This document shows, piece by piece, positions 2,391 through 55,605 of a DNA stretch of 64,000 nucleotides. How positions within the stretch are numbered: the stretch's first letter is position 1; the number at the start of each line of letters is the position of its first letter. The translations under genes were made by a program, and so were the position numbers. The DNA comes from an uncultured Bacilli bacterium (GTDB lineage: Bacteria > Bacillota_I > Bacilli_A > RF39 > UBA660). The stretch is taken from the NCBI GenBank assembly GCA_947629815.1, contig CANRFG010000002.1, forward strand, positions 7,539 to 71,538, in the 5' to 3' direction. Under the pieces are notes generated by a model. The model did not search any database and was not told where the DNA came from. It worked only from the letters and a program-made list of their open reading frames with translations.

Positions 2391-3219
2391 TATAGATGGT
2401 AAATTAATAAGTTCAAAAATAAGAGAAGAAATAAAAACAGAAGTTAAAAATTATATGATAAAACCATGCTTAGCTGTGATACAAATAGGAAATGATGAAG
2501 CAAGTAATATTTATATAAACGCTAAGGAAAAAGCTTGTAATGAAGTTGGAATATATTTAAAACATATAAAATTTGATGAAACAACAAGAGAAATAGAAAT
2601 AATAAATAAAATAATTGAACTTAATAATGATGAATATGTACATGGTATACTACTACAATTACCAATACCTCAAAAATTTAACGAAGAAAGATTAATTAAT
2701 TATATAGCTAGAAATAAAGATGTAGATGGATTAACTGATATAAATGTTGGTAAACTTCTTAATAATAAAAAATGTTTGGTTTCTTGTACACCACAAGGAA
2801 TAATGAAGTTATTACAAGAATCAAATGTTGAAATAAGTGGTAAAAATGTTGTAATAGTTGGAAGAAGTAAATTAGTAGGAAAACCACTTATGAGTTTATT
2901 TTTAAATAATGATGCAACTGTTACAATATGTCACTCAAAAACACAAAATTTAAAAGAATTTACTAAAAATGCTGATATATTAGTAGTTGCAGTTGGGTGC
3001 AAACACCTAATAACAAAAGATATGGTTAAAGATGGAAGCGTTGTAATCGATGTTGGAATAAATAGAGTAGATGGAAAAATATATGGCGATGTTGATTATG
3101 AAAATGTAAAAAATAAAGCCTCTTTAATTACTCCTGTTCCAGGAGGGGTTGGACCAATGACAGTTGCTATGCTTTTAAATAATGTTAATATTTCATATAA
3201 AAATATGACTAATAAATAG
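2383..3219 (+). CDS. folD: bifunctional methylenetetrahydrofolate dehydrogenase/cyclohydrolase
   Basis: FolD motifs ([56 protein letters not shown]). It overlaps the glyA stop, consistent with an operon. Confidence 0.93.
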
Positions 3220-3236
3220 TAAATTATTGACTAAAA

Positions 3237-3467
3237 CATAAAAAAAATATATAATTTACTTATAAATTATCTTTTTAACAAGTTATTATATGTAGTATTA
3301 AAGAGAGAATGTATTGGGTGTAAGCATTTATACAAGTATAATAAAAGACATTAAAAATTATAGATAAATCGTTCATTCGCGTTAAGAATTTAAGCGCATG
3401 TTATTATTATAATATGAATTAAGGTGGCACCGCGGATTTTCCGTCCTTATTTTTAAGGACTTTTTTT
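3237..3467 (+). promoter_or_regulatory. T-box riboswitch leader (sigma-A promoter TTGACT-17-TATAAT at 3237-3265; AGAGA box about 3300; T-box sequence AATTAAGGTGGCACCGCGG at 3417-3435; terminator GTCCTTA-tttt-TAAGGAC + T7 at 3443-3467) controlling hisS-aspS
   Basis: Near-consensus T-box 19-mer sits immediately 5-prime of an intrinsic terminator and directly upstream of hisS. This is the standard T-box expression-platform arrangement. Confidence 0.85.
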
Positions 3468-3482
3468 ATTAGGAGGGATAAT

Positions 3483-4754
3483 ATGATACAAAAGCAAAAA
3501 GGGACATATGATGTATATGATGAAATAGGAAGAAAAATATTATATATCGAAGATTTACTTAAAGCATTAATGGAAAAATATAACTATGAGTATTTAAGAA
3601 CACCTTTATTTGAAGCAAGTGAATTGTTCCATAGAGGAGTTGGAGAAACTTCTGATATAGTATCTAAAGAAACATATGACTTTATTGATAGAGGAAATAG
3701 AAATATAACATTAAGACCAGAAGGAACTGCAGGAATTGTTAGAAGTTTTATTGAAAATAAAATGTATGCTAGAAACGATTTACCTGTAAAAACTTGGTAT
3801 TATGGTCCAATGTATAGATATGAAAGACCACAATCAGGTAGGTATAGAGAATTTTATCAATTTGGTGTAGAAGCCTTTGGAAGTAATGACCCTGCCTTAG
3901 ATGCTGAAATAATTAGTATTCCTGTTAATTTTTATAAATTATTAGGTTTAAAGGGAATAAAAGTTAATATTAATAGTTTAGGTGATACTGAGTCAAGATT
4001 AAAATATAAAGAAGCATTAATTAAATATTTAAAACCACATATATCTAATCTTTGTGAAGATTGCCAAAATAGATTTTTAAAAAATCCACTTAGAATATTA
4101 GATTGTAAAGTAGATAAAGATAGTGAAATTTTAAAAAATGTTCCAAATATTTTAGATTATTTAAATGAAGAAAGTAAAACACATTTTGAAAGTGTTCAAA
4201 AATATTTAAAACAATTAGACATTGAATATGTTGTAAATCCAAAAATAGTAAGAGGCCTTGATTATTATACTAATACTGTATTTGAAGTTGAAGCATCTGT
4301 AGAAGGATTTGGTAGTCAAAATGTTTTGTGTGCAGGTGGTAGATATAATAATCTTGTAGAAACTATAGGTGGCCCTAAAGTAGAGGGAGTAGGCTTCGCA
4401 CTTGGACTTGAAAGATTACTTACCGCTCTTGAATTTGAAGATATAAATTTAATAGATAAAAAATCAGTTGATGTATATATTATACCTATGGGTAATAATG
4501 AAAAAGAAATTTCAATGAAATTACTTAATAATATTAGAATGAATGGTTTCAGCGCAGATATCGATTATTTAAGTAGAAACATTAAATCTAATTTTAAACA
4601 AGCAGATAGATTAAATGCTAAATACATAATAATAATTGGAGAAGATGAACTTAAAACAAATACTATTACAATAAAAAATAATAAAACAAAAACTGAACAA
4701 AAATTAAATTTTGATGATATAATAGATTACTTAGATAAGGAGTTTAAGGAATGA
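3483..4754 (+). CDS. hisS: histidyl-tRNA synthetase
   Basis: Class II HisRS motifs (LRPEGTAGIVRS, YYGPMYRYERPQSGRYREFYQFGVE, GGRYNNLV). Confidence 0.95.
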   Translation: MIQKQKGTYDVYDEIGRKILYIEDLLKALMEKYNYEYLRTPLFEASELFHRGVGETSDIVSKETYDFIDRGNRNITLRPEGTAGIVRSFIENKMYARNDLPVKTWYYGPMYRYERPQSGRYREFYQFGVEAFGSNDPALDAEIISIPVNFYKLLGLKGIKVNINSLGDTESRLKYKEALIKYLKPHISNLCEDCQNRFLKNPLRILDCKVDKDSEILKNVPNILDYLNEESKTHFESVQKYLKQLDIEYVVNPKIVRGLDYYTNTVFEVEASVEGFGSQNVLCAGGRYNNLVETIGGPKVEGVGFALGLERLLTALEFEDINLIDKKSVDVYIIPMGNNEKEISMKLLNNIRMNGFSADIDYLSRNIKSNFKQADRLNAKYIIIIGEDELKTNTITIKNNKTKTEQKLNFDDIIDYLDKEFKE

Positions 4755-6058
4755 AAATAAAAGATTTAGCTAATTATGATAATAAAGAAGTAGTAGTACA
4801 AGGATTTGTAGATAATATAAGAAATTTACAATATGTTGCATTTGTTATATTAAGAGATAAATTTGATAAAGTACAAATAACAATTGAAAAAGAAATAGAA
4901 GAAAATAAATCCTTAATACAAATTATAGAAAATTTACCACTTGAGAGTACTTTAAAAGTTACAGGTAAAGTTATGAAAAATGAAAAAGTTAAACTAAATG
5001 GAATTGAAATAATACCTTCTAAAATAGAAGTAACAAGTACATCTTTAGGTGAACTTCCAATAGATATTAAAAATAAAGATAATACATTAAGAGAAACAAG
5101 ATTAGATTATAGATATTTAGATTTAAGAAGAGTAGAAAATCAATTATTATTTAAGTGTCAATCATATATTGAACAAATGATGAGAGAATATTTTTACAAT
5201 AATGATTATACAGAAATACATACTCCAAAAATAAGCGCAAGTAGTGCTGAAAGTGGAGCTGAAATGTTTAAACTAGATTATTTTGGACAAACTGCTTGTT
5301 TATCTCAATCACCACAATTTTATAAACAAATGACTATGTCTTCTGGATTTGATAAAGTATTTGAAATAGGGCCTGTTTTTAGAGCAGAAAATTCTCATAC
5401 TAGTTATCATGCAACTGAAATTGAAATGATTGATGTTGAAATATCATGGATTAATTCAGTAGATGATGTAATGGATGAAGAAGAAAAATGGGTTAAATAT
5501 TTTATGTCTAAATTAAAAGAAAAATATGGAGAAGAAATTAAAAAAGTATTTAATGTTGAAATATCAAATGTAGATACAGATTTTCCAAGAATAAAATTTG
5601 AAGATGCTAAAAAGATAATAAAAGAAAAATATAATTTTACATCTGAAAGAGAAGACGATTTTGAAAGAAAAGAAGAAGAATTAATATGCAAATATGCTAA
5701 AGAAAAATACAATAGTGATTTTGTATTCATAACTAATTTTCCTTATAGTGCAAGGTCATTTTATGTAATGAAAGATGATAATGGTGTAACACAAACTTAT
5801 GACTTACTTTTTAAAGGTATAGAAATAACAAGTGGAGCACAAAGAGAACATAGATATGATATACTTAAAAAACAAATAATTGAAAAAGGAATTGATACAA
5901 ATTTATTACAATTTTATTTAGATTTCTTTAAATATGGTTGTCCTCCACATGGTGGTTTTGGTGTAGGTATGGGAAGAATACTTATGCAAATATTTGAAAT
6001 AGATAATATTAGAGAAGCTACTTTAATATATAGGGGACCAACTAGGTTAAATCCATAG
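4751..6058 (+). CDS. aspS: aspartyl-tRNA synthetase, short archaeal/type-2 form (435 aa; AsnRS not fully excluded)
   Basis: Class IIb motifs (GFDKVFEIGPVFRAENSHTSYHATE, GCPPHGGFGVGMGRILM). The C-terminus RGPTRLNP resembles the type-2 AspRS ending (...RLtP). It is translationally coupled to hisS, as in Firmicute hisS-aspS operons. Confidence 0.7.
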   Translation: MKIKDLANYDNKEVVVQGFVDNIRNLQYVAFVILRDKFDKVQITIEKEIEENKSLIQIIENLPLESTLKVTGKVMKNEKVKLNGIEIIPSKIEVTSTSLGELPIDIKNKDNTLRETRLDYRYLDLRRVENQLLFKCQSYIEQMMREYFYNNDYTEIHTPKISASSAESGAEMFKLDYFGQTACLSQSPQFYKQMTMSSGFDKVFEIGPVFRAENSHTSYHATEIEMIDVEISWINSVDDVMDEEEKWVKYFMSKLKEKYGEEIKKVFNVEISNVDTDFPRIKFEDAKKIIKEKYNFTSEREDDFERKEEELICKYAKEKYNSDFVFITNFPYSARSFYVMKDDNGVTQTYDLLFKGIEITSGAQREHRYDILKKQIIEKGIDTNLLQFYLDFFKYGCPPHGGFGVGMGRILMQIFEIDNIREATLIYRGPTRLNP

Positions 6059-6076
6059 TAGTTAGGGGGTATTGGT

Positions 6077-7480
6077 ATGGACGAGAGACTTAAAAATTTA
6101 AAAGTTGCTGTTTTATTGCAAAAAGGAAAAGTAGACGATAATTTAACAATTTTATTTCCTATTGGATTTTCTTTAGGAGAAGTAAGTAAAGATAGAAATT
6201 TAATGTATGAATATTCAACTGACAGAGTATATAAAAATGCAAAGCAAATTTTACTTGATGATGAAGAAATTTACTCATTTTATAATGATTTTTCATTGGA
6301 TGAATTATTACAAAGATATGAAAACAAGAATTTACCACAAATATTTAAAATTTTAGGTAATTATTATCGTGAAAATGTGTATTTCTTTGATGAAACTAAT
6401 ACGATTAAAAACATGGAAATAAAAGAATTTGAAAAAAAATATGAAATAACATTAACAAATGAAGATATTGATGAAGTTGAGGAAGAAAATGAAAAAATTA
6501 CAACTTTACCACCTATAAAAAAGGCATATGATACTATTAGTGAAAATGTATTTTCTCAAGATTCAGCAATTAAAAAAATTTTAACGGCAATTTATAAAAA
6601 CTTTTTGATTTCTGATTCTAGATTTAAAACAAATATAATTATGTATGGTGAATCTGGGGTAGGTAAGACAGAAATATTAAGACAAGTAAAAAATGTTTTT
6701 GGTTTGCCTGTTGTAATAGAAGATATGAACAATTATACTCAAACAGGTTATATTGGTAAAAATATTGAAGATTTACTTAAGAAACTTTATATAGAAGCAG
6801 GATGTAATATTTTTCTAGCGCAAAGAGGTATATTATGTTTAGATGAAATTGATAAAAAAGTTTCGAATTCTTCTTTAAATGGTGATTCAATAGCAACTAC
6901 TTCTGTTTTAAATGCTTTGTTAAAATTAATCGAAGGTGGAGAATATGAGTTTGAATATGATGGTAATATTGTTAAATTTGATACTTCATATTTAACTGTG
7001 ATAGCGAGTGGTGCTTTTTCTCAATTAAAAGACAGAGTAGATTCAAATAAAAAGAAAATTGGTTTTAATAATGAAATTTCTAAAAGTTATGAATTTGTAA
7101 CTGATGATTTTATAAGTTATGGTCTTCCAAGAGAATTTGTAGGTAGATTTAATTGTATCATCAAATTAAATGACTTAAAAAAGGAAGATTTAAAAAACAT
7201 ATTATTAAATTCAAATATAAGTTCTTTAAAGATAAATATCGATATGTTAAAGAAGTTAGATACAGATGTACATTTATCAGATAATTTAATTGATAAAATT
7301 GTTGAAACTGCCTATAATCAACATACAGGCGCTAGAGCATTAAATAAAATTATTAATGAATTGTTTGATGATGCCTTCTTCGATATATTTTCTACTGATG
7401 TTGAAGATAGTTTGATGCTAGAATTTAATGATGATGCAATGGAAAATAATAAAAAATTTGTAATTTCTAAAAAAGGATGA
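6077..7480 (+). CDS. ClpX-family AAA+ unfoldase paralog lacking the N-terminal C4 zinc-finger domain (novel 170-aa N-domain)
   Basis: Walker A GESGVGKTE; pore-1 loop GYIG; AQRGILCLDEIDKK; LNALLKLIEGG; an IGF tripeptide (KKIGFNN) at the ClpP-docking-loop position; sensor-2 TGARALN. No CxxC motifs at the N-terminus. Confidence 0.7.
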   Translation: MDERLKNLKVAVLLQKGKVDDNLTILFPIGFSLGEVSKDRNLMYEYSTDRVYKNAKQILLDDEEIYSFYNDFSLDELLQRYENKNLPQIFKILGNYYRENVYFFDETNTIKNMEIKEFEKKYEITLTNEDIDEVEEENEKITTLPPIKKAYDTISENVFSQDSAIKKILTAIYKNFLISDSRFKTNIIMYGESGVGKTEILRQVKNVFGLPVVIEDMNNYTQTGYIGKNIEDLLKKLYIEAGCNIFLAQRGILCLDEIDKKVSNSSLNGDSIATTSVLNALLKLIEGGEYEFEYDGNIVKFDTSYLTVIASGAFSQLKDRVDSNKKKIGFNNEISKSYEFVTDDFISYGLPREFVGRFNCIIKLNDLKKEDLKNILLNSNISSLKINIDMLKKLDTDVHLSDNLIDKIVETAYNQHTGARALNKIINELFDDAFFDIFSTDVEDSLMLEFNDDAMENNKKFVISKKG

Positions 7481-8091
7481 TGATAATGATTATAAATTAT
7501 CAATTAAAATTAGAAGAAATAATAAATGAAAATAAAGATAAATTACCAACATTACTTCTTCATAGTTGTTGTGGACCTTGTAGTAGTTATGTTTTAGAAT
7601 ACTTAAATAAATATTTTAAAATAACAATATTATATTATAATCCTAATATATATCCTTATGATGAATATAAAAAAAGACTTGATGAACAAGTAAGATTAAT
7701 AAATGAATTAAATGTTGAAAATAAAATAAGTATGCTAGAATGTAGTTACGATAATAACGAATATGAGAATGTAATAAAAGGTTTAGAAAACGAAAAAGAG
7801 GGTGGAAGCAGGTGTCATAAGTGTTATGAACTTAGATTAGAAAAAACTGCTAAACTAGCTAAGGAAAATAATTTTGATTATTTTTCTACTACATTAACTG
7901 TAAGCCCTTATAAAAATTCTCAAGTTTTAAATGAAATAGGTTCTAAATTAGAAAAAAAATATAATGTTAAATATTTATATTCTGATTTTAAGAAAAAAAA
8001 TGGATATAAGAGAAGTATAGAATTATCTAAAATATACAATTTATATAGACAAAATTATTGTGGTTGTATTTATTCAAAAAAAACGGATTAA
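7477..8091 (+). CDS. queH: epoxyqueuosine reductase QueH (DUF208)
   Basis: LLLHSCCGPCSSYVLEYL cysteine cluster and CGCIYS C-terminal motif typical of QueH; 204 aa. Confidence 0.85.
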   Translation: MMIMIINYQLKLEEIINENKDKLPTLLLHSCCGPCSSYVLEYLNKYFKITILYYNPNIYPYDEYKKRLDEQVRLINELNVENKISMLECSYDNNEYENVIKGLENEKEGGSRCHKCYELRLEKTAKLAKENNFDYFSTTLTVSPYKNSQVLNEIGSKLEKKYNVKYLYSDFKKKNGYKRSIELSKIYNLYRQNYCGCIYSKKTD

Positions 8092-10367: not shown

Positions 10368-11444
10368 TTGAGAAAAGGTTTTACATTAGTAGAATTGTTA
10401 GCGGTAATAGTGATACTTGCAATAATAGCGTTAATAACAGTACCAATAATAATGAATGTGGTTGAATCATCAAAAAAAGGAGCAGTTAAAGAAAGCCCGC
10501 AAGAATGGTTTATATTTGAAGATAATAGTGATGGGACAGCAACAATAACAGGAGTATCTGATGTATGGAAAAATTTAGAGGATGAAAATAAATATGATAT
10601 AGCAATCCCTTCAAAATCAACTAATGGAAATAGTGTAACAACAATAGGAGAATATGCATTTAATGGAAACAATCTCACAAGTATTGTTATTCCAAAAAGT
10701 GTCACAACAATAGGAGGCTATGCATTTGAATATAATAATCTCACAAATTTAGTAATTCCAGATAATGTTATAACAATAGAAGATGGTGCATTTGAATATA
10801 ATAATCTTGAAAGTTTAGATTTAGGAAATGGAGTTCAGGCAATTGAAGGGTTTGCATTTTCTTTTAATAAACTCACAGGAGAGTTAGTAATTCCAAATAG
10901 TGTCACAACAATAGGAGCAGGTGCATTTGCTGATAATTTATTAACGAATTTAACAATACCAAAAAGTGTCACAACAATAGGTCCAATGGCATTTAATACA
11001 AATTTATTACCAGATGAACAAGCATTTATTTATAAAAGAAATGAAGATGGTACAGAGGATAAAACAACAATAGTAAGTTATGGTGGTAGTAAAAAAGATA
11101 TAAATATACCTAATAACACTATAATAATTGGATTAGGCGCATTTATGGGTAATAATCTCACAAGTGTAATAATTCCAAATAGTATTACAACAATAGGAGA
11201 TTCTGCATTTGAAGGTAACAATCTAACAAATATAATAATACCTGAAAATATTATAACAATAGAATCATATGCTTTTCGTAAAGATGACTATTCAAATCTA
11301 AATTTAACAAAAATAATAAATAAAACAGGAAAAGAATTTGACTGGGATGCAATTATAAATGGTTCAATTGGTAAAAACTATACATTTGTAAAAGGAACAG
11401 TAGAAAGTGATTATGGAAATGTAGAAGTAACAGATACTGAATAA
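10368..11444 (+). CDS. modular type IV pilin-like protein: prepilin N-terminal cleavage/methylation domain fused to BspA-type leucine-rich repeats (LRR_5); TTG start
   Basis: N-terminus RKGFTLVELLAVIVILAIIALITVPII is a class III signal / N-methylation motif. About ten repeats of the form TIGxxAFxxNNLTxxxIP follow. RBS AGAGGAAG precedes the start. Confidence 0.8.
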   Translation: MRKGFTLVELLAVIVILAIIALITVPIIMNVVESSKKGAVKESPQEWFIFEDNSDGTATITGVSDVWKNLEDENKYDIAIPSKSTNGNSVTTIGEYAFNGNNLTSIVIPKSVTTIGGYAFEYNNLTNLVIPDNVITIEDGAFEYNNLESLDLGNGVQAIEGFAFSFNKLTGELVIPNSVTTIGAGAFADNLLTNLTIPKSVTTIGPMAFNTNLLPDEQAFIYKRNEDGTEDKTTIVSYGGSKKDINIPNNTIIIGLGAFMGNNLTSVIIPNSITTIGDSAFEGNNLTNIIIPENIITIESYAFRKDDYSNLNLTKIINKTGKEFDWDAIINGSIGKNYTFVKGTVESDYGNVEVTDTE

Positions 11445-13095: not shown

Positions 13096-14388
13096 ATGAA
13101 AAAAGGATTTACATTAGTAGAATTATTAGCAGTAATAGTAATACTTGCAATAATAGCATTAATAACAGTACCAATAATAATGAATATAGTAGAATCATCA
13201 AGAAAGAGTTCTGCAACAGCATCAGCATATGGATACATTGATGGAGTAAAAATAATGTATGCAAAAGAAATGTTATCTGGAAGTGATTTTACATTAGATG
13301 GAAAATTTAATGTAGATGCTGAAGGTAAATTAGATGGACATAATGTAGAAGTAGAAGGAACAAAAGCAAAAGGTGGATATTTAACATATAGTGATGGAAA
13401 AATAACAGAAGGATGTTTAACAATAGGAGATTATAAAGTAACAATAGAAAATGATACTGCAAAAGAAACTGTAAAAGGAGCATGTGATAGTTCTTCAAAT
13501 GGCGATGAATCAGGAACAAATGTAGTATTTAATGATGGAAGAGAGATATATTTTAATGTTGATACAGGAGAAGAATGTACAGTAGAAGATTATGAAGCAG
13601 CAGGAGGACTAGAAGTACAAAGTAAAACAGGTAATAAACAAGGTTGTATGAAATTTTATGCATTTTTAGATAGTGAAGATTCTGAAACAGTTAATTTGCT
13701 ATTAGACCATAATACAACTGCAGAGGTAAAATGGAATTCAAGTCTAAATAATACTGAAGGTCCAAGTACAGAAGATGGTCAATTGTTATCTCAGTTAAAT
13801 AAAGATACAGAAAATTGGCATGGAACAGAAATACCAAAGAACTATTTAGCATCATGGGAATATGATAATCAAACATATAATTATACAGTAGACTATAGCA
13901 AATATAAAGCTCGATTAATAACAACTGAAGAAATTGCTAAAATTGTAAAAAAAGAAGAAAAAAAACTTGAAGAATTATGTGATGATTCATGCATTGATAG
14001 CTATGGCACATTTGATATAACAAATGGTGAGTATTGTGATAGTTACATTTATGATGATTCGGCTTCTGAGGTTTATTGTGTATCTCCTAATTTTGCTACT
14101 GGAGGTAATTATAATGGTGGTATCGTAACTTATGGATGGTTGTTTGATAATTTATCAATTGGTTCTGCTAGTTGTATAATTTATGGTTGTAAAAATGGAC
14201 AAATTGATGATTCATATAATTATTGGACGGCATCTCCTTATGTTTGTGAGTCGTATGTATATGATAATATTATTTATTATTCATGGGTAGTGTCTTACGA
14301 TGGTACTGCTAATAACAATAATATTGGAGGACTCGCAGGTATTCGCCCTGTTATTGAGGTTTCGAAATCTAAATTGTCTAATAGTTAA
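13096..14388 (+). CDS. modular type IV pilin-like protein 2: the same prepilin N-terminus fused to a Cys-rich C-terminal module
   Basis: N-terminus KKGFTLVELLAVIVILAIIALITVPII is nearly identical to pilin-like gene 1 (the first ~110 nt are about 89% identical at nucleotide level). The C-terminal 150 aa contain many Cys residues (CDDSCIDSYG..CDSYIYDD..YCVSPNF..CIIYGCKNGQ). Confidence 0.8.
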   Translation: MKKGFTLVELLAVIVILAIIALITVPIIMNIVESSRKSSATASAYGYIDGVKIMYAKEMLSGSDFTLDGKFNVDAEGKLDGHNVEVEGTKAKGGYLTYSDGKITEGCLTIGDYKVTIENDTAKETVKGACDSSSNGDESGTNVVFNDGREIYFNVDTGEECTVEDYEAAGGLEVQSKTGNKQGCMKFYAFLDSEDSETVNLLLDHNTTAEVKWNSSLNNTEGPSTEDGQLLSQLNKDTENWHGTEIPKNYLASWEYDNQTYNYTVDYSKYKARLITTEEIAKIVKKEEKKLEELCDDSCIDSYGTFDITNGEYCDSYIYDDSASEVYCVSPNFATGGNYNGGIVTYGWLFDNLSIGSASCIIYGCKNGQIDDSYNYWTASPYVCESYVYDNIIYYSWVVSYDGTANNNNIGGLAGIRPVIEVSKSKLSNS

Positions 14389-19790: not shown

Positions 19791-20771
19791 ATGGAAAAAA
19801 TATTTGGAATAGATATAAGTGAATTTCAAACAAATATAAATTTAAATAAAGCAAAAGAAGAAGGAATTAAATATGCTATACTTAGAGGTGGATTTACAGG
19901 ATATGGTAAAGCTAAAGGTAAAGCGATGGATTCTTCTTTTTTAGCGCATTATAATACATGCAAAAAATTAGGAATACCTGTTGGAGCTTATTGGTTTTCA
20001 AGAGCAGTAAGTAAAGAAGAAGGAGAAGCAGAAGCAAAATACTTTTATGACAATTGTCTTAAAGGAAGACAATTTGAATATCCTGTTGCGATAGATGTAG
20101 AAGATTCATATTATCAAGCAAAAGCATCTAAAGAAGCAGTTACACAAGCTATTATAGGATTTTGTGAATATTTGGAAAATAAAGGGTATTATGTAGTAAT
20201 ATATGCAAACACTGATTGGTTTAAAAATAAAATGAGCATCAATAATTTAAATGCCTATGACAAATGGGTAGCATATTGGGGAACACAAAAACCTAATAAT
20301 ATATCAGCTGGAATTTGGCAGTTTGGTGGAAGTACTAATAAAATAAGAACTAACAAAGTTGCAGGAATAGTATGCGACCAAGATTATGCTTATAAAGATT
20401 ATCCTACACTAATTAAAAATAATGGATTTAATGGATATGAAAAATCAAATGAAGAAACACCAAATATACCTAAAAAAACAATAGAACAACTTGCAAATGA
20501 AGTAATTGATGGTTTGTGGGGAAATGGAAATGATAGAGCGCAAAAATTAACAGAAGCAGGATATAATTATGATGAAGTTCAAAATAGAGTAAATGAAATA
20601 ATGAATAGTAAAAGTAAAGAAATAAAATATATAGTAAAGAAGGGAGATAATTTAAATTTAATTGCAAAAAAATATAACACAACTTGGCAAAAAATATATA
20701 ATGATAATAAATCTATAATAGGAAATAATCCAAATTTAATCAAAGCAGGTCAAGTATTAATTATAAAATAA
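19791..20771 (+). CDS. GH25 muramidase (lysozyme) with Cpl-7 (CW_7) and C-terminal LysM cell-wall-binding modules; no signal peptide (endolysin/autolysin-like)
   Basis: GH25 N-terminal motifs (GIDISEFQ, DSSFLAHYNTCKKLGIPVGAYWFSRA). The Cpl-7-like segment is EVIDGLWGNGNDRAQKL..VQNRVNEIM. The LysM module is YIVKKGDNLNLIAKKYNTTWQKIYNDN...IKAGQVLII. Confidence 0.8.
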   Translation: MEKIFGIDISEFQTNINLNKAKEEGIKYAILRGGFTGYGKAKGKAMDSSFLAHYNTCKKLGIPVGAYWFSRAVSKEEGEAEAKYFYDNCLKGRQFEYPVAIDVEDSYYQAKASKEAVTQAIIGFCEYLENKGYYVVIYANTDWFKNKMSINNLNAYDKWVAYWGTQKPNNISAGIWQFGGSTNKIRTNKVAGIVCDQDYAYKDYPTLIKNNGFNGYEKSNEETPNIPKKTIEQLANEVIDGLWGNGNDRAQKLTEAGYNYDEVQNRVNEIMNSKSKEIKYIVKKGDNLNLIAKKYNTTWQKIYNDNKSIIGNNPNLIKAGQVLIIK

Positions 20772-29439: not shown

Positions 29440-29502
29440 ACTAAATATTATTTTTTATAAATTTATAGACTTTTAATATTTAGTATGTTATAATTAAATT
29501 GC

Positions 29503-29671
29503 CTAAAGATAAGAAATCGTCTGTTAAGAAAAACCTACAAATAAACGATTGGGAATCTAATTTATATGTGGTGTTGAATACCTTTTTATAAGGAATCCTA
29601 AAGCCTATAATGTGATGCCCACCTGGTAGACAGGGTTTATCGTTTCGGACGCCTACATCCTTAGGCTTTTT
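29503..29671 (+). ncRNA. candidate structured small RNA (6S/SsrS-like?), 5-prime and 3-prime ends paired in a long-range closing helix, ending in a hairpin and T6 run
   Basis: GC-enriched 170-nt ORF-free segment. The 5-prime GCCTAAaGATaagaaatCGTC pairs with the 3-prime GACGcctacATCcTTAGGC. The T6 run is followed by an independent TTGATT-17-TATAAT promoter for tcdA. Confidence 0.3.
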
Positions 29672-32744: not shown

Positions 32745-32783
32745 ACCTACATTCTTATAAAATTGATTAGAAAGGATAAATCT

Positions 32784-33791
32784 ATGATTAATAAATTATA
32801 TGAAAAAATAAAGTTATATATAAAAGAAAATTACAAATTTTTATTAGGAATACTAGTTATATTTTTTCTTGGTACTTTTAAACTTCCTTTTTTTATAGAT
32901 GCTCCAGGAGGAATTATAAATGTTAATGATAAAATAGAAATAGAAAATTCAAATGATATTAATGGTAGTTTAAATTTATCATATGTAACAGAACTAAATG
33001 CAACAATACCTACTTATTTATTCGCACTTTTAAATAAAGATTATGATATTATCCCACAAGAAGAAATGAAATATGATAATGAAACAATAGAAGAAGCTAT
33101 GAAAAGAAGCGATATATTATTAAAAGAATCAGTAAGCTATTCAACTTATGTTGCTTATAAAAAAGCAAATAAAGAAATTAATATAACAAGTAGTGAAGTT
33201 TATGTTGCATATATTATAGATAGAAACACAAACGATTTAAAAATAGGGGACCAAATATTAAAAATAGATGATATAGAGATTAAAAGCAAGGAAAAATTAA
33301 ATGAAGTTTTATCTAAATATAATGAAAATGATACAATAAATATCAAAGTTAAAAACGATAATAAAGAATATACAAGAACCGCTAAAATGAAATTAATAGA
33401 TGGTAAAGCTGCTATTGGAATATTAATATCTGAAGTATATGATTTAGAAACTTCTCCAACTATTAATTATAAATTTGATAGTTCAGAAACAGGTCCATCA
33501 GGTGGTTTAATGCTTACTCTTGCTATTTATGATTATTTAACAGAAGAAGATTTAACGCGTGGCAGAAAAATCGTAGGAACAGGTACAATAGATTTTGATG
33601 GTAATGTAGGACAGATAGGTGGAGTTAAATATAAATTAAAAGGAGCAATTAAAAATAAAGCAGATATATTTATAGTTCCAGCAGGAGAAAACTATGATGA
33701 AGTAATGGATTTAGTAAAAGAAAATAATTACAATATAAAAATAATCAAAGCATTAAACTTTGACCAAGTAGTAAATGAACTAAAAAAATAA
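32784..33791 (+). CDS. ylbL: SepM/YlbL-family Lon-like S16 serine peptidase with PDZ domain
   Basis: N-terminal TM, PDZ region, and C-terminal Lon-proteolytic-like domain (GPSGGLMLTLAIYDYL ... IDFDGNVGQIGGVKYKLKGA). Adjacent to ylbJ as in Bacillus. Confidence 0.78.
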   Translation: MINKLYEKIKLYIKENYKFLLGILVIFFLGTFKLPFFIDAPGGIINVNDKIEIENSNDINGSLNLSYVTELNATIPTYLFALLNKDYDIIPQEEMKYDNETIEEAMKRSDILLKESVSYSTYVAYKKANKEINITSSEVYVAYIIDRNTNDLKIGDQILKIDDIEIKSKEKLNEVLSKYNENDTINIKVKNDNKEYTRTAKMKLIDGKAAIGILISEVYDLETSPTINYKFDSSETGPSGGLMLTLAIYDYLTEEDLTRGRKIVGTGTIDFDGNVGQIGGVKYKLKGAIKNKADIFIVPAGENYDEVMDLVKENNYNIKIIKALNFDQVVNELKK

Positions 33792-39588: not shown

Positions 39589-40191
39589 ATGAATAAAAAT
39601 TACAATAAATATGTTGATACCATTTATTTAATAAAAAAACTAGAAGAAGAATTAGATTTACCTTTTTTTGAAATCTTAGAAAAAGTTAAAAAATCTAATA
39701 TTCAAATGGAAGAACAAGAAGTAGATAAATATTTTTATGGTATTGTAAACTTAGATTACTTGAATAAATGTATTTTAATACTTAAAAATAAATGTATAAC
39801 TTTATTAGAATTAATATTAAAATTAGCTAACAATAATATAAGTGATATTGAAAGCGAACTTGATAATTTAGATATAATATTAAATAAAAGAGGAAAAATA
39901 TTGTACAGCGATATTATTAGATTAACAAAACCAACTATATACAATATAAATACATTATTTTGTATGGTTAAAATGTCAAGCGAAAAAGAAACATATATGA
40001 CTGAATTTAATCTTTTAGACTTTGTAAAAGAATATGAAGTGTTTTTATATGATGAATATCCAAGTACTTTATTACAATTTAAAAATATCAATTATGTAAA
40101 AAAGGGATTTATTAATCTAACTAATAATCAAATAGAAGAATCTAAAAAAAGAATAGAAACAAAAGTACTAAGATTAAATAAAAAAGACTAA
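39589..40191 (+). CDS. hypothetical protein (200 aa)
   Basis: ORF with RBS AAGGAG; no recognisable domain. Confidence 0.5.
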   Translation: MNKNYNKYVDTIYLIKKLEEELDLPFFEILEKVKKSNIQMEEQEVDKYFYGIVNLDYLNKCILILKNKCITLLELILKLANNNISDIESELDNLDIILNKRGKILYSDIIRLTKPTIYNINTLFCMVKMSSEKETYMTEFNLLDFVKEYEVFLYDEYPSTLLQFKNINYVKKGFINLTNNQIEESKKRIETKVLRLNKKD

Positions 40192-40307
40192 ATATAATTT
40201 TTTTAGAAATGATGCATATAATGTATTAAAAGTAAATAGTTTTTATTAAAAAAAATAAAAAACTTTTCAAATTTGACAAAAAAGTGTAAATTTGATATAC
40301 TTGATAT

Positions 40308-40933
40308 ATATTGATTGGCACATTATTCTAGTCAATATGATTTATTAGGAAGACGGGGCTAAAAATCCGTTAAAGAGCATATCTGTGAAACTTTTGGTGT
40401 TTGCTTCTTACGCCCAGTTTGGGGTGAATGCTGGAAGGTAGAGTTATGGGCGCACATAATGGCATATGTTTCCGACCCATTCCTCATGGAGACCTAATCT
40501 TGTGGTAAGCATATACACATACCGTTGACTTGACTTACTACGACTTAGGCTTGAACCTACTTTGTGGCGAAAGTTATGAGTAGTGTAGCTTGTCTTGAGT
40601 GGATATTTGGAACGAATGAACAATTTTAAGTAATTTATAGCTAAGATTATTTAAAAATCGCATTCTGAAATTATGTCTGCAAAAAAGAATTATTAATAAA
40701 TCAGTTGGGGAGGAAATCTCCTAGAGTGTCATTGATATAGGATTGCAGTGTGTACTAAGTGGCAATCGAGTAATATAATAGGTAACTATATATCTGCTTT
40801 TTTAAAGGGGAACCGCAAGTATGGTAACATCTTGTAAGAGCAGGGGAAATCCAACTCGACCTAAGACACAAAGTTAACTATATTAATAGCCAGACAAGAG
40901 TTTTAAAGGGGGAAATTACCCTTTTTATTTTTT
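40308..40933 (+). ncRNA. large structured noncoding RNA, about 625 nt; candidate OLE (ornate large extremophilic) RNA
   Basis: ORF-free on both strands and markedly GC-enriched against a 22-25% GC background. It has its own promoter (TTGACA-17-TATACT at 40273-40301) and intrinsic terminator (AAAGGG-N8-CCCTTT + T-run at 40905-40933). The size matches OLE. A small polytopic membrane protein follows immediately, and nusB-xseA-xseB lie adjacent, which is the conserved OLE/oapA neighbourhood. Confidence 0.45.
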
Positions 40934-40950: not shown

Positions 40951-41493
40951 ATGGCAAAAAAGAAAACTAATAACACAAAATGGATAATAAAAATAACTGT
41001 TTTGGCCTTTATAATTTCATTAATATTCTCTTTAATATCAGAACTTGCTTTAAATAATGTTGGTATAATTATTGGAGTTATTGTTTTATTTATATTTATA
41101 TTAATAGGAGTAGTATTTGATATGATAGGTGTTGCAGTTACAGTATGTGATGAAAAACCTATTCATTCCATGAATTCTAGAAAATTAAAAGGCGCTAATG
41201 TAGCAGTTATCCTTAAAAAAAATTCAGCAAAAGTTTCATCTTTTTGTAACGATGTAGTAGGTGATATTTGTGGTATTATATCAGGTTCTGCTGGTATCGT
41301 TATTGCTACAACTATTTCAATTAAACTTAATGTAAATCCATTATATGTAAATTTAATTGTAACAGGTTTAGTAGCTGCGCTTACTATAGGTGGTAAAGCA
41401 ATGGGAAAAGATATAGCTATTAAAAAAAGTAATAATATAATGAATATTTTTTCTAAATTTATTTCTTATTTTTATACTCCAAAAAATAAATAA
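40951..41493 (+). CDS. small polytopic membrane protein, candidate OapA (OLE-associated protein A)
   Basis: 180 aa with four hydrophobic helices and a conserved-looking acidic motif (FDMIGVAVTVCDE). RBS GAGGTGA. Position directly 3-prime of the large ncRNA. Confidence 0.4.
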   Translation: MAKKKTNNTKWIIKITVLAFIISLIFSLISELALNNVGIIIGVIVLFIFILIGVVFDMIGVAVTVCDEKPIHSMNSRKLKGANVAVILKKNSAKVSSFCNDVVGDICGIISGSAGIVIATTISIKLNVNPLYVNLIVTGLVAALTIGGKAMGKDIAIKKSNNIMNIFSKFISYFYTPKNK

Positions 41494-43543: not shown

Positions 43544-44605
43544 GTGTTTAAAATGAAAAAATATGAATTATCAATTAAAGATTATGATTGGTTGAAAAAA
43601 ATAATTAATATTAGTATTTCAATAAAAAAATTGTATGATAATCTAATTAAATTAGAAGTATTAGGTAATAAAAATACAGATGAATATTTAAAATACTTAA
43701 ATTATTTAGATATTGGTATTGAAATAGAAGATAAAATATATAAAGAAGCAAACTTAAATTTTCCAAAAAGTGATGCTCTTGCTGGTTTTTTAAATGGTTT
43801 TTTAGTTGAAAAAAACTTGAATAAAAATGTATTAGCAAGAGATTTAGATATTAATAATAAAAATATACTACCAAAAGATTTAGATATAGTTTTAATGCGT
43901 ATAATCTCTGTATTAGTTTATAATTGTATTTCTGATTATGAATCTATTCAAAAGATGTCTAATAATGACTTAAAAGAATTAAAAGAAACATTTGGTATAA
44001 AAAACTTAGTTGGTTTATCCATTTATAGTGGAATTGAATTAAAAAAATCACTTGATAAAGATTCTAATATGGGTTTTCTTACTTTTTTACAAGAATTTAT
44101 AAAAGATAATAATTATTCTAGTTTTAAAGAAGATTTAATTGAATATAAATATTATAATATATTTATGAATAAAAATGTTGAAAATTATATAAAAGAAAAT
44201 CATTTTGAAATACCTAAATTTTATACTAATTCTAGATTTATAGCAGATTTAACTAGAACTGATTTATATTTATATCAACTATTTAAAAATAATTATGCAA
44301 ATAGAATTGCAATGGAATCTATTTTAAATATTTTAGAAATTTCAGATAGTGATTATATGAAAACCAATGAATCTATCTTTTCAATTTTAAATCAATGTTA
44401 TTTGCGTTCTTCACTTTTACAAATGAACGATGATTATATAAGTGATTCTAATTATGCTTTTCATGAATTTGTAGAAGGTAAAGAATATAATAAAAATTAT
44501 CCTGAACATAATATAAGTGAACAAATAATAATAAGTTGTTTTAAAGGAATTAAAAAAGACAGAGAAAAACAATTTGAAGTGTCAATTAGATATAGAAAAA
44601 AATAA
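43544..44605 (+). CDS. hypothetical protein (353 aa) occupying the position where ispA lies in Bacillus; no polyprenyl-synthase DDxxD motifs
   Basis: Long ORF; no recognisable domain. Confidence 0.5.
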   Translation: MFKMKKYELSIKDYDWLKKIINISISIKKLYDNLIKLEVLGNKNTDEYLKYLNYLDIGIEIEDKIYKEANLNFPKSDALAGFLNGFLVEKNLNKNVLARDLDINNKNILPKDLDIVLMRIISVLVYNCISDYESIQKMSNNDLKELKETFGIKNLVGLSIYSGIELKKSLDKDSNMGFLTFLQEFIKDNNYSSFKEDLIEYKYYNIFMNKNVENYIKENHFEIPKFYTNSRFIADLTRTDLYLYQLFKNNYANRIAMESILNILEISDSDYMKTNESIFSILNQCYLRSSLLQMNDDYISDSNYAFHEFVEGKEYNKNYPEHNISEQIIISCFKGIKKDREKQFEVSIRYRKK

Positions 44606-44725: not shown

Positions 44726-45712
44726 ATGATTTTAAAAAAATCCTTTACAAACTTACTAATTCTTCTAACATTATTTATTATTCCGATTAAAGCATCTGGT
44801 TATTCAGATTATCTAATAGTTGGAGGAGAAAATGTAGGTATCAAACTAAATTCTAAAGGTGTTATGGTAGTTGGACTATATACAATTAATAATATTTCTC
44901 CAGCAAAAGACGCAGGAATAAAAGTAGGGGATACTATAACAAGTATTAACGATAAAAAAGTATCCAATGTGTATGATATGACATCTCAAATATCAAAATA
45001 TGTTGATGAAACAATAAAAATTGGATATGTTAGAGATGACATAGAAAAATATGCAAATATAAAACTTGTAAAAACAGATAATGAATATAAAACAGGTATG
45101 TATATAAAAGATAATATAACAGGTATAGGAACACTTACATATATAGACCCTAATACAAAATTATTTGGTGCTTTAGGGCATGAAATAATTGAGAAAAATA
45201 CAAACAAAATATTAGATTCAAATAATGGTATAATATTTGATTCTACTGTTACAAGTATTAAATCAAGTACATCTGGAAATCCTGGAGAAAAAAACGCAAA
45301 ATTAGAACCTGATGATACTAAGGGAACTATTTTTGAAAATACAAGTCATGGAATATTTGGTAATTATACAGATACCTTACCAAATAAAAAATTATATAAA
45401 GTTGCTTCAATAGATGATATTAAAACAGGGGAGGCTAGTATATTTACTGTACTAGAAAACAAAGAAATAGGACAATATGATATCAATATTACAAATATAA
45501 ATAAAACTTCTAATAATACTAAAAATATACAATTTGAAATAACAGATGAAGAACTTTTAGAAAAAACAGGTGGAATTGTTCAAGGAATGAGTGGTTCACC
45601 AATAGTTCAAGGAGATTATATAGTTGGAGCTGTAACACATGTTATAATAGATAATCCAACAAATGGGTATGGAATATTTATAACTAATATGCTAGAAGAA
45701 GCAGAGAATTAA
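44726..45712 (+). CDS. spoIVB: SpoIVB peptidase (S55) with PDZ domain
   Basis: Signal peptide, PDZ region, and S55 catalytic motifs (GIGTLTYIDP..FGALGHEI, GIVQGMSGSPIV). Confidence 0.85.
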   Translation: MILKKSFTNLLILLTLFIIPIKASGYSDYLIVGGENVGIKLNSKGVMVVGLYTINNISPAKDAGIKVGDTITSINDKKVSNVYDMTSQISKYVDETIKIGYVRDDIEKYANIKLVKTDNEYKTGMYIKDNITGIGTLTYIDPNTKLFGALGHEIIEKNTNKILDSNNGIIFDSTVTSIKSSTSGNPGEKNAKLEPDDTKGTIFENTSHGIFGNYTDTLPNKKLYKVASIDDIKTGEASIFTVLENKEIGQYDINITNINKTSNNTKNIQFEITDEELLEKTGGIVQGMSGSPIVQGDYIVGAVTHVIIDNPTNGYGIFITNMLEEAEN

Positions 45713-46663: not shown

Positions 46664-47293
46664 ATGAAAAAATATTTGGACAAGTTTAAAGGACTAATTA
46701 AATTAAACAAAAAAACACTACTTTTTTTTACTATTTTATTAATAATAGGAATATTATCAGGTTCTATATTTATGGCAATATTAAATGATACTGATAAACA
46801 ATTAATAAATGAATATTTTAATAATTTTATCTCTAATATTGAAAATAATAATTTGAATTATTTTGAAGCAATTAAAAATGGTTTATTTAATAACTTATTA
46901 TATATTTTAATTATATGGATATTAGGTATTTCAGTAATAGGTATTCCAATAGTAATATTAATGTTTTTTGTAAAAAGTTTTACTTTAGGTTTTTCTATTT
47001 CTAGTATAATATTTAATTATAAATTTAAAGGTTGTTTACTAAGTTTTATAAATATATTTCCACATCAAATACTTAATTTTTTAGTTTATATAATTCTTAC
47101 TACTTATTCTATTTTTCTTTCACTTAGAATAATAAATTCGATAATTAAAAAGAAAACAATAGATTTTAGAATGATAATGAATAAATACATTAAAGTATTA
47201 ATATTTTCAGTTATAGTAATTGTAATTTCTATTATTATAGAAGTATTTTTAACTCCAATTTTAATAAAGTTAATAATACCTTTTATAAAATAA
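46664..47293 (+). CDS. stage II sporulation protein M-like polytopic membrane protein
   Basis: 209 aa with five TM helices in a SpoIIM-like topology; weak similarity only. Confidence 0.45.
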   Translation: MKKYLDKFKGLIKLNKKTLLFFTILLIIGILSGSIFMAILNDTDKQLINEYFNNFISNIENNNLNYFEAIKNGLFNNLLYILIIWILGISVIGIPIVILMFFVKSFTLGFSISSIIFNYKFKGCLLSFINIFPHQILNFLVYIILTTYSIFLSLRIINSIIKKKTIDFRMIMNKYIKVLIFSVIVIVISIIIEVFLTPILIKLIIPFIK

Positions 47294-54393: not shown

Positions 54394-55605
54394 ATGAATG
54401 AACCTTTAGCTATTAAATTAAGACCAAAAAAAGTAAAAGATGTAATTGGTCAAGAACATTTAATTGGAAAAGATAAAATAATAACAAATATAGTAAATAA
54501 TAAAAAATTATTTTCGATGATTTTTTATGGTAAACCAGGTGTTGGTAAAACAACACTTGCTCTTGCTATTACAAATGAACTTGGTTTTAAATATAGAATG
54601 CTTAATGCTGTTGTTAACGCTAAAAAGGATTTTGATGTTGTTATTGAAGAAGCAAAAATGTATGGTAATATTGTCTTAGTTTTAGATGAAATTCATAGAT
54701 TAAACAAAGATAAACAAGATATTTTACTTCCTTATTTAGAAAATGGTGTTATAACACTTATTGGTATGACTACTTCAAATCCTTATCATAGTATTAATCC
54801 TGCTATAAGAAGTAGATGTCAAATATTTGAACTTAAAGAACTTACTAATGAACATGTAGTTATAGGAATTAAAAGAGCCATAAAAAGTGAATTTTTACCT
54901 AATATAAAAATAGATAAAAAAAGTATTGATTACATCGCCTCATTATCTAATGGAGATTTAAGATTTGCTTATAATTTACTTGAAATGGCTTACTACTCTA
55001 CTAGTGATTTTAATATAAATTTAGATGTTTTAAAAAATATAAATAGTAAACCTGCTTTTTTTCATGATAAAAACGAAGATGGTTATTATGATGTAATAAG
55101 TGCTTTTCAAAAATCTATTCGTGGAAGTGATGTTAATGCTTCTCTTTATTATTTAGCAAGATTAATAGAAGCAGGAGATTTAGATATAATATTTAGAAGG
55201 ATGAGCGTTATTGCATATGAAGATATTGGGCTTGCTAATAGTTCTATGGGACCTAAAGTAGATGCTTGTATAAATGCATGCAATCGTCTTGGACTTCCTG
55301 AGGCTAGAATTCCTTTAGCAGCAACTGTAATAGAACTTGCTTTATCTCCTAAATCTAATAGTGCTTGTATGGCAATAGATGATGCTTTAAATGTTGTTAG
55401 AAGTGGTAATAGTGGTAATGTACCTGATAATATTAAAACTACTTCTCCTGATTATTTATATCCACATAATTATAAAGGTAGTTGGGTAAAACAACAATAC
55501 TTACCTGATAAAATTAAAAATATTAAATTTTATGTACCAAAAAATAACAAATATGAAAATATGTTAAAAGAAGTAATCGATAAGATAGAAAGAAATAGTA
55601 AATAG
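54394..55605 (+). CDS. rarA: replication-associated recombination protein A (MgsA/RarA AAA+ ATPase)
   Basis: Walker A GKPGVGKTT, Walker B LVLDEIHR, and the RarA C-terminal helical domain. Confidence 0.88.
   Translation: MNEPLAIKLRPKKVKDVIGQEHLIGKDKIITNIVNNKKLFSMIFYGKPGVGKTTLALAITNELGFKYRMLNAVVNAKKDFDVVIEEAKMYGNIVLVLDEIHRLNKDKQDILLPYLENGVITLIGMTTSNPYHSINPAIRSRCQIFELKELTNEHVVIGIKRAIKSEFLPNIKIDKKSIDYIASLSNGDLRFAYNLLEMAYYSTSDFNINLDVLKNINSKPAFFHDKNEDGYYDVISAFQKSIRGSDVNASLYYLARLIEAGDLDIIFRRMSVIAYEDIGLANSSMGPKVDACINACNRLGLPEARIPLAATVIELALSPKSNSACMAIDDALNVVRSGNSGNVPDNIKTTSPDYLYPHNYKGSWVKQQYLPDKIKNIKFYVPKNNKYENMLKEVIDKIERNSK

Follow-up and report, generated by a model that had tools for sequence, protein, structure and literature searches.

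We analysed a 64-kb stretch (64,000 nucleotides) of contig CANRFG010000002.1 from an uncultured Bacilli bacterium (assembly GCA_947629815.1), hereafter the window, and within it a gene for a putative ClpX-like AAA+ unfoldase of 467 amino acids, hereafter X, which lies between aspS, the second of two aminoacyl-tRNA synthetase genes, and queH (Table 1). A first reading of the letters alone (the sequence-only reading) had described X as a ClpX paralog in which an unrelated domain takes the place of the zinc finger while the ClpP-docking tripeptide Ile-Gly-Phe (IGF) is retained. The domain replacement and the retention of IGF both stand, and three features that the reading lacks are added here: the deletion of the RKH loop, the hypervariability of X, and the existence of a large undescribed family. 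Altogether, these results argue that X is probably a ClpX-descended, ClpP-docking unfoldase with fast-changing substrate specificity.

The Pfam scan of X returned AAA_2 (3.4e-17) and ClpB_D2-small. The top eleven distinct matches among the sequences of the PDB are all ClpX, the best being E. coli ClpX 8e91_A (E value 1.6e-29), to which HMMER aligns residues 127 to 445 of X collinearly. All motifs on which the sequence-only reading had based its alignment are present at the ClpX-aligned positions, among them LLKLIEGG at residues 281 to 288, and the KKIGFNN of X ("kkigfnneis") is set on the SGIGFGA of the E. coli protein ("SGIGFGATVK"), that is, with IGF at the position of the ClpP-docking loop. 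An AlphaFold2 model of X, built on a 58-sequence family alignment, reached a mean predicted local distance difference test (pLDDT) score of 88.8. Searched against the PDB with Foldseek, the full model found as top matches only ClpX subunits of ClpXP complexes, from E. coli, Neisseria, M. tuberculosis, and human (E values of ~1e-25, target template modelling [TM] scores of ~0.8). In the model, IGF is part of a coil (residues 327 to 341, pLDDT of ~62 to 65) between helices 315 to 326 and 342 to 348, as would be expected of a flexible docking loop. With ClpX as the best match in both sequence and fold, X is ClpX-derived.

Nevertheless, X does not qualify as ClpX proper. Its top NCBIfam match, the ClpX equivalog NF003745, scores 165.4 bits against a curated cutoff of 359, and a second equivalog model (TIGR00382) scores 143 bits against 370.75. 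The zinc-binding domain zf-C4_ClpX (PF06689) was not found in X by the Pfam scan, residues 1 to 170 hold no Cys at all, and CxxC is absent from every close family member checked. The RKH loop of ClpX is deleted in X and in all family members displayed, and the pore-2 loop has diverged. With the equivalog scores, the zinc-binding domain, and the RKH loop missing, and the motor motifs and IGF present, we classify X by its sequence as a ClpX-derived AAA+ unfoldase and not as a ClpX equivalog.

In place of the zinc finger, X carries a domain (the N-domain) that was predicted at a pLDDT of 93 from 28 sequences only, which implies a conserved core; fold comparison found it no structural relative among solved or viral structures. 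The sequence-only reading had placed here an acidic domain of ~170 amino acids. The replacement domain is real, yet its folded part covers only ~125 amino acids and is followed by a disordered acidic linker of ~20 amino acids, after which the residues of X model as a ClpX-like AAA+ module. Acidity does not distinguish the N-domain, whose isoelectric point (4.9) is close to that of the whole protein (4.8).

The N-domain defines a large family. Its profile, searched against 1.84 billion representatives, matched at least 315 clusters (at 50% identity) at an E value of ≤1e-3, 86 of them at ≤1e-10, with hosts that are metagenome-assembled genomes (MAGs) of Bacilli or "Clostridium" with 23 to 29% GC. 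The domain begins within the first ~35 residues in 150 of the 150 matches listed and was seen only at the N terminus of an X-type AAA+ module; full-length matches measure 450 to 674 amino acids, and those checked carry this module. Most short matches resemble contig-end fragments. Four proteins of 173 to 179 amino acids with a short basic tail (P0162, P0197, P0206, and P0178) may be stand-alone N-domain proteins; P0162 has no Pfam match. A homolog search retrieved several dozen zinc-less proteins of roughly 450 to 580 amino acids, and among the matches listed, proteins bearing PF06689 first appear at about 33% identity to X. The best of these, P0073, was considered as the canonical ClpX of the lineage and set aside, its gene context being unrelated, rich in small unannotated open reading frames (ORFs), and not informative. 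Named family members are annotated solely as "AAA family ATPase [Bacilli bacterium]".

To what extent the motor is kept was counted in 134 full-length, N-domain-bearing members aligned to E. coli ClpX, whose numbering is used here. K125 of Walker A is invariant (134/134), D184 and E185 of Walker B are kept in 132 and 118 members, the Arg finger R307 in 119, and the sensor-2 R370 in 113, while pore-1 position 153 is aromatic in 118 (Tyr in 109, Phe in 9). At the IGF site, 123 members have a hydrophobic residue at position 268, 126 have G269, and 124 have F270. Thus, across the family, IGF (~93% of members) is no less conserved than the catalytic residues. One subclade of six proteins (P0139, P0140, P0150, P0152, P0163, and P0169) has kept the N-domain and Walker A and lost the pore Tyr, the Walker B Glu, the Arg finger, sensor-2, and IGF together; IGF is therefore retained only where the motor is retained. 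Judged by these losses, the subclade probably consists of pseudo-ATPases derived from the family. In a neighbour-joining tree of the AAA+ module, the 135 family members (P0107 included) form one clade apart from 40 canonical ClpX, across a branch of length 0.27. Median identity is 34% within the family versus 58% among the sampled canonical ClpX, E. coli included.

The evolutionary behaviour of X was revealed by comparison with genome GCA_947623925.1, a 197-kb contig of which shows synteny with the window. At the protein level, identity is 99.5% for mutS, 98.6% for hisS, 98.2% for aspS, 97.8% for def, and 89.6% for queH, versus 52% (tblastn) or 53.5% (global alignment) for X. Of the 32 genes that both share, just two diverge more, a pilin (30%) and an unannotated protein of 353 amino acids (44%); X is the fastest-evolving cytoplasmic enzyme of its neighbourhood. 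The pilin belongs to a pair of hypervariable type IV pilin-like proteins, the other being 68% identical between these near-identical genomes, and the 353-amino-acid protein is encoded next to spoIVB; low identities were also recorded for ComEA (66%), a zinc-ribbon protein (71%), and an LtaS-like sulfatase-family protein (72%). Scanned in 100-nucleotide bins, DNA identity is 92 to 100% over 3200-5999, 61 to 79% over 6100-7499, and 85 to 97% from 7500 onward, so that the low-identity block corresponds to the X ORF.

Substitution rates (Nei-Gojobori) between the window and two related loci, L083 and L085, point the same way. Against L083, the nonsynonymous rate (dN) of X is 0.373, versus 0.006 to 0.064 for seven other genes from glyA to ftsW. 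The ratio of nonsynonymous to synonymous rates (omega) comes to 0.42 for the whole of X; the N-domain alone gives 0.84 and each AAA+ subdomain 0.29. In the comparison with L085, all genes are saturated for the synonymous rate (dS), yet X still stands out with a dN of 0.37 versus 0.06 to 0.13 for the same seven genes; here omega amounts to 0.41 for all of X and to 0.69 for its N-domain. Pairwise, the three X alleles are ~53% identical throughout, even though one of the three genomes is far more distant from the other two than these are from one another. No cluster between 52% and 100% identity to X was found in a database of 5.8 billion clusters, while MutS clusters, by contrast, form a continuum (100, 91, 88, 84, and 79% identity). 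Within X's own cluster at ≥90% identity, members differ at just 5 to 6 scattered sites, which shows no hypermutation inside an allele class.

A jump in dS from 0.13 to 0.89 had suggested that the X alleles are uniquely older than their flanks. This reading was given up in view of the synonymous differences at codons for identical amino acids, which amount to 0.34 for X, 0.32 for glyA, and 0.06 to 0.08 for hisS and aspS; the resemblance of X to glyA indicates that the region is a recombination mosaic. The synonymous age of X is thus at the top of the local range and not beyond it, and its amino-acid replacement rate alone is exceptional. The divergence of X may stem from allele exchange or from fast in-situ evolution, two sources that these comparisons do not tell apart. 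X is a gene-sized hypervariable block, and its fast amino-acid turnover, most marked in the N-domain, implies changing or lineage-specific targets.

The genetic context is that of translation. As the sequence-only reading had it, X follows hisS and aspS and not clpP or tig: in tblastn searches with queries including E. coli ClpP and canonical ClpX, neither ClpP nor tig nor a second clpX was found in the window. A scan of genome-collection contigs with the Walker B pattern returned only canonical ClpX from many phyla, and this pattern is uninformative. The end of hisS overlaps the start of aspS by 4 nucleotides, the stop codon of X overlaps the ATG of queH (ATGA), and no terminator-like site was found between 3460 and 8698. 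To judge from these junctions, X most likely shares a transcript, headed by a T-box leader, with hisS, aspS, and queH and is translationally coupled to them. The leader scores below the gathering score of its model and was overlooked by the default Rfam scan.

Of 7 independent contexts, 4 show the hisS-aspS-X order, with X as little as 39% identical: at L083 and L085 (X proteins 50 to 52% identical to that of the window), at L087 in a "Bacilli bacterium" MAG (GCA_028693965.1; 39% identical, with a long, GAD-containing aspartyl-tRNA synthetase [AspRS]), and at L093, where X stands within a Bacillus-type secDF-relA-dtd-hisS-aspS cluster. At other loci the gene follows rimM-trmD-fmt, stands alone, or forms a tandem pair; it never adjoins tig or clpP in the loci examined, and the 7 loci have 23 to 29% GC throughout. 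The tandem pair (L094, 6665-8080 and 8077-9609) shows a stop/start overlap, 53% mutual identity, and all motor motifs and IGF intact in both copies, whose products could form mixed hexamers or provide alternative specificities. In the same hisS-aspS slot, L087 (1214-2953) and L093 (8236-9978) encode a long AspRS of 579 to 580 amino acids. The short form of 435 amino acids and the long form are only 30 to 35% identical, which suggests replacement of the AspRS type inside a conserved operon.

Table 1. Features of the X locus and other hypervariable genes, in window coordinates
Feature	Position	Strand	Basis or remark
Promoter-like site TTGACT-17-TATAAT	3227..3255	+	11/12, consensus match only; 5' of operon leader
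T-box leader upstream of hisS	3266..3451	+	RF00230, 85.3 bits, E value 2e-19; gathering score 93
Terminator-like hairpin after T-box leader	3443-3460	+	Terminator scan
hisS, histidyl-tRNA synthetase, first operon gene	3483..4754	+	tRNA-synt_His and HGTP_anticodon, both in ortholog
aspS, short AspRS (435 amino acids) without GAD insertion	4751..6058	+	tRNA_anti-codon and tRNA-synt_2 only
Shine-Dalgarno sequence AGGGGG of X	6064..6071	+	7 nucleotides 5' of ATG
X, putative ClpX-like AAA+ unfoldase	6077-7480	+	ORF list; coincides with low-identity DNA block
Family-defining N-terminal alpha/beta domain, residues 1-125	6077..6451	+	Model: small beta-barrel-like half, then helices; Cys-free
Acidic disordered linker, residues ~126-145	6452..6511	+	pLDDT <50 at residues 132-140; isoelectric point 4.05
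Walker A GESGVGKT, residues 191-198	6647..6670	+	Motif alignment to ClpX
Pore-1 loop GYIG, residues 224-227	6746..6757	+	Motif alignment; aromatic-hydrophobic pattern present
Walker B ILCLDEIDK, residues 252-260	6830..6856	+	Motif alignment to ClpX
Site of deleted RKH loop	6956..6967	+	YDG/NIV versus E. coli GGRKHPQQEF, 7-residue gap
IGF tripeptide, residues 328-330	7058..7066	+	Aligned to E. coli I268-G269-F270
EFVGRF with Arg finger R357, residues 353-358	7133..7150	+	Motif alignment to ClpX
Sensor-2 TGAR (R420), residues 417-420, small AAA+ subdomain	7325..7336	+	Motif alignment to ClpX
queH, epoxyqueuosine reductase, last operon gene	7477..8091	+	Start overlaps X stop
Other hypervariable genes (two pilin-like, 353-amino-acid protein)	10368-11444, 13096-14388, 43544-44605		Identity comparison

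In ClpX, the pore-1 Tyr grips and translocates the substrate, the IGF loops dock in hydrophobic clefts of ClpP, and recognition of ssrA-type tags, adaptors, and specific substrates falls to the RKH loops and the zinc-binding domain; PMC11423568 also states the link between RKH and ssrA. We propose a model in which X would act as a hexameric, ATP-driven unfoldase and translocase, expressed along with hisS and aspS under T-box control. Substrates would be threaded through the Tyr-bearing pore, and the IGF loops would dock in the surface clefts of ClpP, to which the substrates would be delivered. The new N-domain of ~125 amino acids, tethered by the flexible acidic linker, would be the likely recognition module. 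As both the zinc-binding domain and the RKH loop are lost while the motor and IGF are kept, substrate choice would differ from that of ClpX, in support of the altered substrate or adaptor specificity suggested by the sequence-only reading. X would be a paralog beside a canonical clpX. Several points weigh against this model: X scores far under the ClpX equivalog cutoff (165 versus 359 bits), no clpP was found in the window or in the 10 kb around any of the 7 family loci examined, IGF might be conserved for the sake of a partner that is not ClpP, and weak constraint instead of a recognition role could underlie the near-neutral omega of the N-domain.

It might be argued that X is simply the sole ClpX of its organism, with a diverged N-domain and a general ClpXP housekeeping function, since ClpX is its nearest known family and no second clpX was seen in the window, which is a small part of the genome. 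We consider this unlikely, given that both recognition elements of ClpX are lost, that a long branch sets the family apart as a clade of its own, that its members never adjoin tig or clpP in the loci examined, that tandem duplicates occur within one genome, and that one subclade has degenerated to motif-less proteins. Moreover, X is ~53% identical between genomes in which MutS and HisS are 99.5% and 98.6% identical, while sampled canonical ClpX reach a median of 58% with E. coli included. An improbable alternative as well is a ClpP-independent remodelling chaperone, in which the IGF loop would be structural or serve another partner. ClpX itself has ClpP-independent chaperone functions, no linkage to clpP appeared in any context examined, and the conserved neighbours are translation genes and not proteases. 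However, the hydrophobic-Gly-Phe motif at the docking-loop position is kept in ~93% of members and lost only with motor activity, and we know of no role of the ClpX IGF loop besides ClpP docking.

A redundant paralog drifting towards loss under relaxed selection would account for the raised omega (0.42 overall, ~0.8 in the N-domain), the low median identity of 34% within the family, and the degenerate subclade. Such drift is very unlikely in view of the catalytic motifs and IGF, intact in X and in ~90% of members of a family of at least 315 clusters, of the omega of 0.29 in the AAA+ module, and of the conserved core implied by the confident N-domain model. Synteny and translational coupling are also maintained down to 39% identity, and X's own cluster at ≥90% identity varies at only 5 to 6 sites. 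A more specific proposal, which we hold to be quite unlikely, would make X a variable-specificity, ClpP-coupled unfoldase engaged in genetic conflict, its N-domain directed at phage, mobile-element, or toxin-antitoxin targets and its alleles recombining at the hisS-aspS and queH flanks. If so, alleles would be kept or swapped as at pilin or restriction-specificity loci, and X would constitute a proteolytic immunity or surveillance module on a ClpX chassis. Phage records gave matches to the AAA+ module only, at ~30% identity; PADLOC returned no full-length defence model for X, with partial matches to DolB (residues 118 to 215, 54 bits) and IetA (17 bits), and no match to the N-domain.

The ClpX-descended, ClpP-docking unfoldase that we favour can be set beside known Clp systems. 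With canonical ClpX (E. coli, B. subtilis; TIGR00382/NF003745), X shares a collinear AAA+ module (~26 to 31% identity, target TM score of ~0.8) with Walker A and B, GY[VI]G, IGF, Arg finger, sensor-2, and a D2-small-type C-terminal subdomain. It differs by the lack of the C4 zinc-binding domain, the RKH deletion, the diverged pore-2 loop, and the new 125-amino-acid N-domain with its acidic linker, as well as by its place in a hisS-aspS operon away from tig and clpP, and by evolving several-fold faster than its own neighbours and being far less conserved than ClpX. Zinc-less ClpX paralogs are already known, e.g., ClpX3 of M. xanthus, an additional, dispensable ClpX-type protein with specialised roles, in which the zinc-binding N-domain is lacking and the RKH motif altered (PMC11423568). 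ClpX3 is simply without an N-domain, whereas the X family has acquired a different folded one; ClpX3 comes from another phylum, is not reported to be hypervariable, and shows no evidence of a common origin with X. HslU (ClpY/CodX), of the same AAA+ clade, is the second-best NCBIfam match over the P-loop region, yet X reaches only 92.8 bits, in three fragments, against a cutoff of 362 for TIGR00390, its HslU matches in the PDB sequence search cover just the P-loop region, and HslU has an I-domain insertion and docks HslV by its C-terminal tail instead of an IGF loop. ClpI of Actinomycetota provides, as far as its description in PMC10149685 goes, a precedent for a distinct and lineage-restricted class of Clp unfoldases recognised purely by bioinformatics. 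By that description, it differs from X in belonging to another phylum and in being catalogued with Hsp100/Clp unfoldases such as ClpB and ClpC and not as a ClpX-type protein (PMC10149685). Our literature search found no ClpX-type family with a replacement N-domain, the operon position of X, or its evolutionary behaviour.

The window also bears on the host. It encodes a SpoIVB peptidase (44726-45712), SpoIIM (46664-47293), a YlbL-like PDZ-Lon_C protease (32763-33791), RarA/MgsA (54394-55605), and mutS, which indicates a full-featured organism and not a minimal Mollicute. By its gene content, the host is probably a spore-forming Bacillota, though its closest named relatives are labelled "Bacilli bacterium". 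The sporulation link of X that the sequence-only reading had considered possible was abandoned: spoIVB and spoIIM lie ~38 kb away, the conserved neighbours are aminoacyl-tRNA synthetases, and neither positional nor distributional evidence was found for such a role. Beyond these genes, the window contains a full-length OLE (ornate, large, extremophilic) RNA (40299-40909, + strand; 391 bits, E value 2e-111), notable as a large noncoding RNA in a gut-type Bacillota MAG of 24% GC and flanked by unannotated ORFs (39589-40191 and 40951-41493), the downstream one of which (40951-41493) may encode an OLE-associated protein. A 6S (SsrS) RNA (29497-29671, + strand) scores 55.7 bits, above the gathering score. 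A GH25 muramidase with CW_7 repeat and LysM (19791-20771, + strand), of endolysin-like architecture and adjoining an ABC/FtsX fusion protein, may stem from a decayed prophage or act as an autolysin.

The specificity of ClpX is usually explained by its zinc-binding domain, RKH loops, and adaptors. The X family is a natural and widespread lineage in which both the zinc-binding domain and the RKH loop have been discarded, the motor and the docking loop kept, and a new domain added, and so lends itself to studying how Clp unfoldases come to be retargeted. In its hosts, poorly known and uncultured low-GC gut Bacilli, the fast evolution of X and its place in a T-box aminoacyl-tRNA synthetase operon hint at a role in translation stress or genetic conflict.

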